From NCBI GenBank assembly GCA_044866775.1, contig JBIOUG010000010.1:9052-73051 (forward strand): a stretch of DNA of 64,000 nucleotides. The letters run 5' to 3'. This stretch comes from Thermoanaerobaculia bacterium. GTDB lineage: Bacteria > Acidobacteriota > Thermoanaerobaculia > Multivoradales > UBA5704. The notes below the pieces were generated by a model. It was not told where the DNA came from. It saw nothing but the letters and a program-made list of their open reading frames with translations, and searched no databases. The translations under genes were made by a program, and so were the position numbers. Of the stretch, positions 6,001 to 9,000 are shown in pieces (position 1 is the first letter of the stretch; each line of letters opens with the position of its first letter).

Positions 6001-9000
6001 GCAGGAGCGGCTCTGGATGCTGGACCAGCTCCAGCCTGGCCAGCCGACCTACAACATCCCGGTCGCGCTGCGGGCGCACGGCTCGCTCGACGCCGCGGTC
6101 GTCGACGCCGCGTTCGCCGAGATCGTGCGGCGGCACGCCGTGCTCCGCACCACCTTCCGCGAGCGCGACGGCAACCCCTACCAACTGGTCGCCCCGTCGG
6201 ATCCGGCCACTTGGCGGTCGCCCGTCGTCGACCTCACGGGCCTTCCGGCCGGGGTGGCGCGCGAGGACGAGGCGCGCCGGCTCGTCATGTCCGAGGCGCG
6301 GCGGCCGTTCGACCTCGCGACCGGCCCGCTCCTGCGCACGACGCTCCTCCGGCTCAGCCCGGAGGAGCACGTCCTCGCGTTCACCGCCCATCACGTCGCC
6401 TCGGACGGCTGGTCGGTACGGATCTTCGTCGGCGAGCTGGTGGCGCTCTACGCTGCCCTGCTGCGCGAGCTGTCGGCCTGCCACGAGGCGCTCGGCGGCG
6501 AGCGTGCCGGGCGGCGCATGACCGCCGCCGAGGTGGCGGCGGCCGCGGGCCTCCCCGAGCTACCGGTGCAGTACGTGGACTACGCCGTGTGGCAGCGGCG
6601 TTGGCTCTCGGGCGAGACGCTGGAGCGGCAGGTGAGCTATTGGCGGGGGTCTCTGGCGGGCGCGCCGCCGCTGCTCGAGCTGCCGCTCGACCGGACGCGG
6701 CCGGCGGTGCAGACGTTCCGCGGCGAGTCGCACGTGCAGCGGCTCCCCGCCGGCGCCACGGCGGCGCTCCACGCCTGCGGCCGGAACGAAGGGGCGACGC
6801 TCTTCATGGTCCTGCTCGCCGGGCTCTCGGCGCTGCTCGGCCGCCTGGCGGGGCAGAAGGACGTGCTGATCGGCGCGCCGATCGCGGGCCGCAACCGCGC
6901 CGAGGCCGAGAACCTGATCGGCTGCTTCCTCAACACGCTGGTCCTGCGCGCGGACCTCACAGGCGCGCCGAGCTTCCGCGCCCTCCTCGCCCGGGTGCGC
7001 GAGACGACCCTCGGCGCCTTCGCGCACCAGGACCTGCCGTTCGAGAAGCTGCTTGAGGAGCTGCAGCCGCCACGCACCCTGGCGCACACGCCGCTGTTCC
7101 AGGTCTTCCTGAACGTCGGCAACTTCCCGGCGATCACCGCCGAGCTGCCAGGCGGCCTGTGGCTCGAGACGTTCGCGCCCGCGGACGTGGGCTCGAAATT
7201 CGACTTCACGCTCTACGTCTTCGAGAACGCCGAGGGGCTCAAGATCAACTGGGTCTACAACAGCGACCTCTTCGATCGCGCCCGCATCGAGGAGATGGCG
7301 CGGCAGCTCGCCCTGCTCCTCGCGCAGGCGGTCGCCGAGCCCGGCCGACAAGTCAACGCGCTGCCGCTGGTGACGCCCGAGGCGGCCCGCCTGCTGCCCG
7401 ACCCCGCGGACCACCTCGACCGCGGCTGGCTGGGCTCGGTCCCCGAGCGGTTCGCGGAGCTCGCGGCGCGTCTGCCGGCGGCGCCGGCCGTGGTCGATCC
7501 GGTGGAAAGCTGGAGCTACGGCGAGCTGGCGGCGTACTCCCATCGCCTGGCCTGGCGGCTCGCCCGCGGCGGCGTCGAGAAGGGCGACTTCGTCGCCATC
7601 TGGGCGCACCGCAGCGCGCCGCTCGTGCCGGCGCTCCTCGCGACGCTCGAGACGGGCGCGGCCTTCGTGATGCTCGACCCCGCGCACCCGGCGGCGCGGC
7701 TCGCTGACATGGTGCGGCTCGCGCCGCCGGCCGCGCTCGTCGTCATCGAGGCCGCGGGGGGTTTGCCGGAGGAGGTCGACGTGGCGCTGGCGGAGGCCGG
7801 GTGCCGCTGCCGGCTCGTCCTGCCTCCCAAGCGGGCGCTCGCCGAGCGCGACCCGGCGGCGGGAGAGCCGGAGGAGCTGCTCGGCGTCGAGCTCGCGCCC
7901 GACGATCCGGCCTACGTCGCCTTCACCTCCGGCTCGACAGGGAAGCCGAAGGGGATCGTCGGCCGCCACGGGTCGCTCTCGCACTTCATCCCCTGGCAGC
8001 GGGTGCGGTACGAGCTCTCCGCGAGCGATCGCTTCAGCCTGCTCTCGGGCCTGGCGCACGACCCGCTGCACCGCGACGTCTTCACGCCGCTCCAGACCGG
8101 CGGCTCGATCGCGGTGCCGAACCCGGAGGGGATCGGCGGCGCGGGGTACCTCGCGAATTGGTTGCGCGAAGCGGGGGTCACGGTCGCCAACCTCACGCCG
8201 GCGATGGGACAGCTGGTCGCCGAGGGCGGGGGCGCCGGCCGCCTGCCGGCGCTGCGGCTCGCCTTCGTCGTCGGCGACGTGCTGACGCGGCGGGACGTCC
8301 GGCGCCTCCAGGAGCTGGCGCCCGAGATGGTCTGCGTCAACCACTACGGCTCGACCGAGACGCAGCGGGCGGTGGGCTACTACGTCGTGCCGCCGCGGGC
8401 GGCCGAGTCGCTGCCCGACGTGCTGCCGCTCGGCCGCGGCATCCCGGACGTCCAGCTCCTGGTGGTCAACGCCGCGGCAGCGATCGCGGGGGTCGGCGAG
8501 GTTGGCGAGGTCTGGGTGCGGAGCCCGCACGTGGCGCTCGGTTACCTGGGCGATCCGGACCGCACCGCGGAACGCTTCGTCGTCAACCCCTGGACCGGCG
8601 CGGCGTGGGACGTCGCCTACCGCACCGGCGACCTCGGCCGCTACCTGCCGGACGGGCAGGTGGCGTTCGCCGGGCGCGTCGATCAGCAGGTCAAGGTGCG
8701 CGGCTTCCGCATCGAGCTCGGCGAGGTGGAATCGGTGCTCGGCGTGCATCCGAACGTGCGCGAGGTGGCAGTGGTGGCGAAGGGCGCGGCGACGGAGCGG
8801 CGGCTCGTCGCCTACGTCGTGCCGGCGCCGGCGGCGGGCGGCGACGAGGCGCTGATCGGGCGTCTCCGCTCCTACCTCAAGGAGCGCCTCCCCGACTACA
8901 TGGTGCCGGCGCTTTGGGTGAGCCTGCCGGCGCTGCCGCTGACGCCGAACGGCAAGCTCGACCGCCGCGCGCTGCCGGAGCCGGAAGAGCCCGCGGCCGC

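Follow-up and report, generated by a model that had tools for sequence, protein, structure and literature searches.

The window analysed here is a stretch of 64,000 nucleotides from a Thermoanaerobaculia bacterium (assembly GCA_044866775.1, contig JBIOUG010000010.1, positions 9,052 to 73,051 of the forward strand) with a G+C content of 70-76%, and it contains three large synthetase genes in the same direction, designated ORF1, ORF2 and ORF3 (Table 1). The window begins inside ORF1, so that the N-terminus of its product is lost. An atypical adenylation (A) domain, A*, occurs once in ORF1 (A*1) and once in ORF3 (A*2), in each case with a full condensation (C) domain upstream and a carrier (T) domain followed by another C domain downstream. 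A* is a catalytically intact A domain of the aminoadipate reductase (AAR) clade, found in an ordinary C-A-T elongation module and accompanied by a dedicated subfamily of upstream C domains. Domain orders of the three synthetases were obtained from Pfam and motif scans, and pocket codes from alignment to GrsA-PheA, whose numbering was checked by recovery of the canonical code DAWTIAAICK.

A first-pass annotation of the window, made by eye, had described A* as a distinct type of A domain shared by both assembly lines and departing from the consensus at several core motifs. Translation of ORF1 and ORF3 places both copies where the annotation had put them, with the in-frame limits of the second copy slightly redrawn, and the two are 81.7% identical. 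Every string quoted in the annotation occurs in both copies, and most of the motif readings hold. The A4 region of both copies reads H-D-P-L-H-R-D where ordinary A domains have F-D-x-S-x-x-E, the GxGEVGE stretch before A7 is present in both and represents a variant form of the A6 motif, and the Pro and Arg that had been seen after the conserved Asp correspond to P236 and R239. The alignment to GrsA-PheA results in the codes DPRNFVHRAK for A*1 and DPRNFVHQAK for A*2, with the A5 region carrying pocket positions H322, R330 and A331 in A*1 and Q330 in A*2. The A5 string NHYGSTETQ occurs in both copies as described, but the Pro that it lacks is not strictly invariant, even within this window (the second A domain of ORF1 has NMYGITE). 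An extension that had been reported at A3 is absent: the stretch from A3 to A4 aligns without gaps to GrsA, yeast Lys2 and ten other A domains of the window, and the residues following the P-loop are instead a clade-specific set (GRHxSLxHFxxW).

These departures at A4, A5 and A6 could be read as decay, with A* a degenerate or inactive domain that is kept as a structural or skipped module. We consider this highly improbable. The P-loop, the A5 Glu, A7 (YRTGD, including its Asp), A8 and the A10 Lys (K517, in PLTPNGKLDRRAL) are all intact, and the copies, 82% identical to each other, contain no frameshifts or stop codons. Furthermore, the residues that look deviant are conserved in active fungal AARs and in hundreds of bacterial homologues. 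In an alignment of 18 homologues, H33, D34, P35, L36 and R38 (H-D-P-L-x-R) as well as T132, E133 and T134 are invariant, and the same residues recur in 80 homologues; the deviations are therefore not due to chance.

Profile comparisons indicate where A* belongs. Its best family model is the AAR model TIGR03443 of NCBIfam, on which A*1 and A*2 score 467.8 and 455 bits, whereas the generic A-domain model TIGR01733 (cut-off 317.4) gives them 378.2 and 373 bits. Three other A domains of the window, taken as controls, show the opposite behavior, with 176-220 bits on TIGR03443 and 440-466 bits on TIGR01733. The sequence of yeast Lys2 used for comparison was validated by its end-to-end score of 2398 bits on TIGR03443. 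In BLASTP, A* and yeast Lys2 are 38% identical across the full domain, and they share GRHxSL...W after A3, SG(L/I)AHDP(L/I)xRD at A4, NxYG(S/T)TETQRA at A5 and YRTGDLGRYLP at A7. A search of solved structures with A* returned ordinary NRPS (nonribosomal peptide synthetase) A domains only, the best being LgrA, and no close template.

The pocket tells the same story. Yeast Lys2 has the code DPRHFVMRAK. Among 120 retrieved homologues of the Lys2 A domain, some of them named aminoadipate reductases by their source, a code could be extracted from 117, and 110 of these read DPRHFVMRA. A*1 matches the AAR code at 8 of the 10 positions (H278N and M322H differ) and A*2 at 7 of 10 (with R330Q in addition), while the signature D235-P236-R239 ... 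A331-K517 is present in both copies. Neither copy carries the complete AAR code, which would be the basis for a firm call of 2-aminoadipate (Aad) as the substrate. The first-pass annotation had matched the pocket residues to no common Stachelhaus code; instead, the code is that of Lys2 and the AARs with two changes (three in A*2), it also resembles that of Zmn16 A1 (DPRHLALLAK), and the deviations are not peculiar to this cluster but a signature of the whole Lys2/AAR clade. The annotation's expectation of an unusual building block fares better, as the unusual pocket (P236 and R239) together with the intact motifs makes a non-standard substrate very likely.

In a neighbor-joining tree that included four database AARs, the split separating fungal AARs, A*1, A*2 and the bacterial domains with a DPR-type pocket (D235, P236 and R239) from GrsA and the ten other A domains of the window was recovered in all 60 of 60 bootstrap replicates, and the topology was the same with yeast Lys2. 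Monophyly of the bacterial DPR-type members alone was recovered in only 29 of 60. From these comparisons, A* almost certainly belongs to the AAR-type clade of A domains. A few bacterial sequences sister to fungal AARs had already been noted by Bushley and Turgeon (PMC2823734). A* is not an AAR enzyme, because it has no reductase domain, is preceded by a complete C domain with an HHxxxDG motif and, at 468 bits, remains below the TIGR03443 cut-off of 1030.1. Lys2 is a stand-alone reductase of fungal primary metabolism with the order ADA-A-T-R, whereas A* is part of a C-A-T module in a bacterial line that combines NRPS and polyketide synthase (PKS) modules.

Relatives of A* are widespread. A protein search found homologues of 45-60% identity in NRPS fragments, and one of 76%, from sources including Longimicrobium, Thermoanaerobaculia, Pyrinomonadaceae and Ktedonobacteraceae; 80 homologues have a code of the form DPR(H/N)xxx(R/Q)(A/S)K, with DPRHFVYRAK the commonest. 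Species-representative genomes were scanned with an alignment of the clade-specific segment from the A3 flank to A6, and at least 579 loci matched. The best 79 of these are all in metagenome-assembled genomes (MAGs) of Acidobacteriota, Gemmatimonadota (Longimicrobium) or Chloroflexota, and among the matches listed the nearest are in Acidobacteriota/Thermoanaerobaculia MAGs with 83-84% identity over the A4-A6 segment. The closest loci among the matches listed (L001-L003) have the identical code DPRNFVHRA and about 75% identity to A*, in a line that runs Thr-like, C-A*-T, Gly, Gly, Ser. A tblastn search of the PLSDB plasmids with A* returned generic A domains only, at about 40% identity.

Across the related loci, DPR-type domains belong to ordinary elongation modules, whose varied neighbors include modules for Thr, Leu, Val or Ala on the upstream side and for Gly, Ser, Thr or Cys on the downstream side. 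Canonical codes for Asp (DLTKIGHVG) or Glu (DAKDLGVVD) co-occur with them in the same lines (L020, L025, L055 and L078), so that the DPR clade is not a local version of ordinary Asp or Glu loading. Some bacterial codes are identical to those of true AARs: DPRHFVMRA in L058, and DPRHFVLRA, the code of a Cordyceps AAR (P0356), in L059, L075, L078 and L079. In the literature, we found no description of the clade's abundance in elongation modules of uncultured soil phyla, of its private C-domain partner, or of the identity between bacterial codes and those of true AARs.

Several observations on individual relatives can be added. Recurrent pocket codes without an assigned substrate that are found next to DPR-type modules (in L013, L017, L018, L026, L035, L053, L074 and others) include DIFHFGLIL, DAHITTHVA, DIWEITADD and DVRNIGHIN. 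The closest homologue of A* (P0001, the one at 76%) lies at the end of a C-A-T-C-A*-T gene (L084, contig_77564 of ERZ25039586, 1229-11833), preceded by a fragmented KS...ACP-TE gene; the order of its modules relative to the PKS-TE part is unlike that in the window, the contig has many apparent frameshifts, and no genes for precursor supply were seen on this fragmented contig. Three other loci (L080, L081 and L082; gene 8001-10727 or 8001-10709) encode stand-alone A-T-TE proteins of the A* clade with the code DPRHFGFQAK, situated within loci for Wzy, flippase and glycosyltransferases. These surroundings suggest a role in aminoacylation of exopolysaccharide rather than in peptide synthesis. We also considered that these A-T-TE proteins might be Ser ligases of the mycosporine type, which would have favored a Ser-like substrate, but rejected this since their neighbors are Wzy, flippase and glycosyltransferase genes and not those for mycosporine-like amino acids.

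The C domain upstream of the DPR-type A domains (the pre-DPR C domain) forms a group of its own. C domains were compared over their first 390 residues, so that neither the linker nor the beginning of the A domain contributed. For 53 of 55 pre-DPR C domains, the best hit in a different locus was another pre-DPR C domain, compared with 5 of 122 other C domains, and pre-DPR C domains made up a fraction of 0.74 of the top ten hits in the former group versus 0.07 in the latter. The C domain before A*1 likewise finds its best cross-locus matches in front of DPR-type A domains, while the one before A*2 is 68.8% identical to its ORF1 counterpart and next best matches the pre-DPR C domains of L001, L002 and L004. 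C domains downstream of DPR-type modules cluster moderately (18 of 26 versus 13 of 151). Judged by these cross-locus best hits, C-A* behaves as a co-inherited unit, and a dedicated upstream subfamily would fit an unusual acceptor substrate.

An N-terminal C-like domain is needed for activity in Lys2-type reductases and in module 1 of ACV synthetase (ACVS) (PMC7884236). The ADA domain of Lys2, compared as a single sequence with the C subfamilies, shows a weak preference for the pre-A* group (21.5 versus 15.7 bits). A profile built from nine ADA sequences gives a similarly weak preference (mean 42.0 bits for pre-DPR C domains versus 36.4 bits for the others; Mann-Whitney p = 0.046), with pre-DPR C domains in the top five places.

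What A* loads has to be judged from its relatives. Since Lys2 reduces Aad to the delta-semialdehyde, it activates the delta-carboxyl group. The same carboxyl of Aad is adenylated by ACVS, and ACVS module 1 and the Lys2-type reductases have been described as the only known activators of this amino acid (PMC7884236). In the zeamine pathway of Serratia plymuthica, the first A domain of Zmn16 (A1) is part of a loading module; its code is DPRHLALLAK, and Aad was its predicted substrate (PMC3547906), while NMR of prezeamine revealed an N-terminal, side-chain-linked 'gamma-Asp' that corresponds to this domain (PMC5811116). A similar code, DPRHVSLLAK, belongs to the first A domain of FclI in fabclavine biosynthesis (Xenorhabdus), which has been assigned to Asp (PMC12283262 Table S15). 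A* has D235, P236, R239, A331 and K517 in common with both, but it has N rather than H at 278 and differs at 299, 301, 322 and 330, a comparison made at the level of the codes. Unlike Zmn16 A1, it sits in an elongation module instead of a loading module, and its likeness to AARs suggests Aad where the substrate of Zmn16 A1 is Asp.

ACVS module 1 differs from A* in that it initiates its chain and has a C* domain that is truncated and non-catalytic, whereas a complete HHxxxDG C domain precedes A*. The code of the ACVS A domain is reportedly EPRNIVEFVK, with P236, R239, N278 and V301 as in A*. An elongation module that incorporates iso-(gamma-)linked D-Glu is known from McyE and NdaB of the microcystin and nodularin synthetases; its code is reported as DPRHSGVVGK and deviates from that of A* at 299-331. 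Among C-A-T modules, it would be the closest precedent for an acidic residue tethered through its omega-carboxyl. In a review of A domains, we found nothing on the loading of Aad or on isopeptide loading.

Position 239 reportedly forms the floor of the pocket in GrsA (Conti et al. 1997; Stachelhaus et al. 1999). An Arg at this position, together with Arg330 in A*1, argues for a distal carboxylate on the substrate, and we regard an acidic substrate as likely. The candidates rank as Aad first, then Glu, then Asp. Aad leads because A* shares F299, V301, R330 and A331 with the AARs but not with Zmn16; as a specific assignment it is nevertheless tentative. By analogy with Lys2, ACVS module 1 and Zmn16 A1, the mechanism may be as follows. 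The pocket (Arg239, plus Arg330 in A*1) would bind a dicarboxylic alpha-amino acid, most likely L-2-aminoadipate and otherwise Glu or Asp, whose side-chain (omega) carboxyl would be adenylated and thioesterified. Acylation of the alpha-amine of this omega-tethered residue would fall to the specialized upstream C domain, after which the following C domain would transfer the chain from the omega-thioester. In the resulting peptide, an acidic residue would be joined by an isopeptide bond and keep its alpha-carboxylate free, following Thr in the ORF1 line and Ser in the ORF3 line. As for activation of the omega-carboxyl, the analogy tips the balance slightly in favor, and we lean to the same modest degree towards the proposal as a whole, in which an AAR-type A* loads an acidic residue through its side chain to give an isopeptide.

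A number of points weigh against this proposal. The substrate and regiochemistry of A* and its close homologues are assigned by analogy, and the tree was built from a set that lacks the Zmn16, FclI, McyE and ACVS sequences. At 278 and 322, A* has N and H where the AAR code has H and M, and the Q330 of A*2 means that the two copies may not share a substrate, or that R330 may not matter. Co-clustering of the C domains could reflect common descent of C-A units and not substrate chemistry. No genes for Aad supply were seen in the window, in which ORF1 is cut at the start and the genes downstream of the synthetases are housekeeping genes (a TonB-dependent receptor, MurJ, RNase D, ApaG, TerC and RlmL). 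These downstream genes indicate a Gram-negative organism and speak against an actinomycete, which a G+C of 73% might have suggested; the sole exact protein match to the window is a 2-kb metagenome contig in Logan (SRR30692710). Finally, A* keeps Asp235, the usual ligand of the alpha-amine. It may thus activate Glu or Aad in the ordinary way at the alpha-carboxyl, in which case Arg239 could just as well bind the carboxylate of the side chain.

Such ordinary loading, with Asp235 holding the alpha-amine and Arg239 (and Arg330) the distal carboxylate, would lead to a normal peptide bond and a pendant acid. It would suit the retention of Lys517 alongside Asp235, the standard C-A-T setting with intact HHxxxDG C domains on both sides, and the fact that the canonical Glu code DAKDLGVVDK (L055 and L069) also has a basic residue at 239. 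However, Asp235 is also kept in the relatives that activate the distal carboxyl and does not discriminate; those with a DPR(H) pocket (Lys2, ACVS and Zmn16 A1) activate the distal carboxyl or yield side-chain-linked residues, and a distinct upstream C subfamily is easier to explain by an unusual acceptor geometry. We therefore think alpha-activation unlikely, though it deserves to be taken seriously.

An AAR-like pocket may also merely reflect shared ancestry, with A* loading an unusual substrate that is not acidic, for example a beta-amino acid, a gamma-amino acid, or a hydroxy or amino acid carrying modifications. In favor of this, the code departs from that of the AARs at two (A*1) or three (A*2) of its ten positions, the clade varies at 278, 299, 301, 322 and 330 (DPRHFGFQAK, DPRHLVLRAK, DPRNMVLRAK and others), and the A-T-TE subgroup in exopolysaccharide loci suggests functional diversification. 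Against this, D235, P236, R239, A331 and K517 hardly vary within the clade or among fungal AARs, and DPRH pockets have two documented substrates, each a dicarboxylic amino acid, which leaves a non-acidic substrate in our view distinctly unlikely. We regard side-chain loading of an acidic residue as the most economical reading.

The two assembly lines are paralogous. When ORF3 was mapped onto ORF1, the C-A*-T modules were colinear, with 57-84% identity. The modules preceding A* are for Thr, with a sulfotransferase, in ORF1 and for Ser in ORF3, and ORF1 is longer by two modules (NMe-Ala-type and Gly), which lie between A* and its final Ser module. The first-pass annotation had argued from the retention of A* in both lines, while neighboring A domains were swapped, that its building block is essential. 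The retention itself stands, but A* is neither the sole retained nor the best-conserved part: the terminal C-A(Ser)-T-KS-AT-ACP-TE block is 74-93% identical and is the best-conserved part of both lines. In each, this block consists of a Ser module followed by KS-AT-ACP-TE, without KR, DH or MT domains, so that release would follow a single malonyl extension of the seryl peptide.

Table 1. Synthetase genes, A* modules and other features, with positions in the window
Feature	Position	Strand	Domain order, motif or detail	Basis
ORF1	20-24346		A(Gly, DILQLGMIWK)-T; C-A(Thr, DFWNIGMVHK)-T-sulfotransferase; C-A*-T; C-A(DLFNCALTYK, methyltransferase insert)-T; C-A(Gly)-T; C-A(Ser, DVWHISLVDK)-T; KS-AT-ACP-TE	
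Sulfotransferase domain, ORF1	5081-5932	+	aa ~1688-1971	Pfam, PDB matches
C domain just upstream of A*1	6032-7390 (start approximate)	+	HHVASDG	Pfam, motif scan
A*1, Lys2/AAR-type A domain of the ORF1 C-A*-T module	7400-8980	+		Translation, Pfam, TIGR03443, GrsA alignment
AMP-binding and AMP-binding_C, A*1	~7454-8956			Pfam
A3 and following stretch, A*1	7925-7996		TSGSTGKPKGIVGRHGSLSHFIPW	
A4 region, A*1	8042-8083	+	LSGLAHDPLHRDVF; pocket D235, P236, R239	
A5 region, A*1	8339-8371	+	NHYGSTETQRA	
A6 variant, A*1	8489-8551		G(V/I)GEVGE(V/I)WVRSPHVALGYLG	
T domain paired with A*1	9038-9226	+	LGGHSL	Pfam PP-binding, motif scan
Methyltransferase insert, fourth A domain of ORF1	~12422-12715		class I	
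Terminal block, ORF1	20540-24343	+		
ORF2	24664-30780		A(Ser code, FkbM-type methyltransferase insert)-T; C-A(DAWSLGHVVK)-T	
Methyltransferase insert, first A domain of ORF2	~26317-26886	+	aa 552-741	Pfam
ORF3	30789-48311		C-A(Ala)-T; C-A(Ser)-T; C-A*-T; C-A(Ser)-T; KS-AT-ACP-TE	
C domain just upstream of A*2	37731-39086	+	HHVVADG	Pfam
A*2, paralogous Lys2/AAR-type A domain, ORF3	39099-40700	+		Translation, TIGR03443, GrsA alignment
AMP-binding and AMP-binding_C, A*2	~39153-40676			Pfam
A3 and following stretch, A*2	39624-39695		TSGSTGRPKAILGRHGSLSHFIPW	
A4 region, A*2	39741-39782	+	LSGLAHDPLHRDVF; pocket D235, P236, R239	
A5 region, A*2	40038-40070		NHYGSTETQQA	
A6 variant, A*2	40209-40271		G(V/I)GEVGE(V/I)WVRSPHVALGYLG	
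T domain paired with A*2	40758-40946	+		Pfam PP-binding, motif scan
Terminal block, ORF3	44499-48308	+		
ORF directly 3' of ORF3	48678-50450	+	590 residues	

Besides A*, the window contains further unusual domains. ORF1 carries an 'activating' sulfotransferase (ST) domain of the CurM type inside the NRPS, placed after the T domain of the Thr module and before the C domain that leads into A*1 (order T-ST-C). It matches Pfam Sulfotransfer_3 (4e-25) and, among PDB structures, CurM (4gbm, 2.9e-63) and the olefin-synthase sulfotransferase (4gox, 3.7e-59). By analogy with the ACP-ST pair in CurM, it could O-sulfonate the beta-hydroxyl of T-bound Thr, resulting in sulfo-Thr or, after elimination, dehydrobutyrine. 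The majority of its homologues are ACP-ST didomain proteins, and ST is combined with a C domain in a few metagenomic protein fragments (P0131, P0136, P0166, which is named Thermoanaerobaculia, and P0177). The domain is absent from ORF3 and from the related loci L001-L003. In novelty, this embedded sulfotransferase may exceed A*.

Methyltransferases are inserted into two A domains. In the first A domain of ORF2 (DVWHISLVDK), an FkbM-type methyltransferase (Methyltransf_21, 1e-14) separates the AMP-binding core from the end of the C-terminal subdomain, which suggests O-methyl-Ser as the starter unit of ORF2, and the fourth A domain of ORF1 (DLFNCALTYK) contains a class-I methyltransferase. Directly 3' of ORF3 lies an ORF without a Pfam match and with a third-position G+C of 0.95; it is overlapped on the opposite strand by an ORF of 566 residues, so that the coding strand is uncertain.

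The A-domain type of A* is already known from fungal Lys2, and DPRH pockets from Zmn16 and FclI, so A* is not a new enzyme class. For such clusters, the finding usefully corrects the prediction of structures, and the tight pairing of the A domain with a C subfamily bears on designs that swap modules. If side-chain loading of an acidic residue is true, standard specificity predictors would miss or mis-call one residue in hundreds of assembly lines of uncultured soil phyla, and an isopeptide-linked acidic residue with a free alpha-carboxylate would alter the predicted structures, for example in synthetic-bioinformatic natural-product work. If the substrate is Aad, A* would be the first Aad-incorporating elongation module outside ACVS and would widen the use of Aad in NRPSs beyond this enzyme, described as the only known case (PMC7884236). 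The C-A* unit also points to a specific bacterial group in which fungal Lys2 and its C-like ADA domain may have originated. In the broadest form of this idea, which is possible but which we hold to be rather doubtful, C-A* would represent a large bacterial lineage of elongation modules that insert delta-linked Aad or another omega-linked acidic residue, and this lineage would be sister to fungal Lys2 and would have given rise to it, ADA being what remains of the dedicated C domain.

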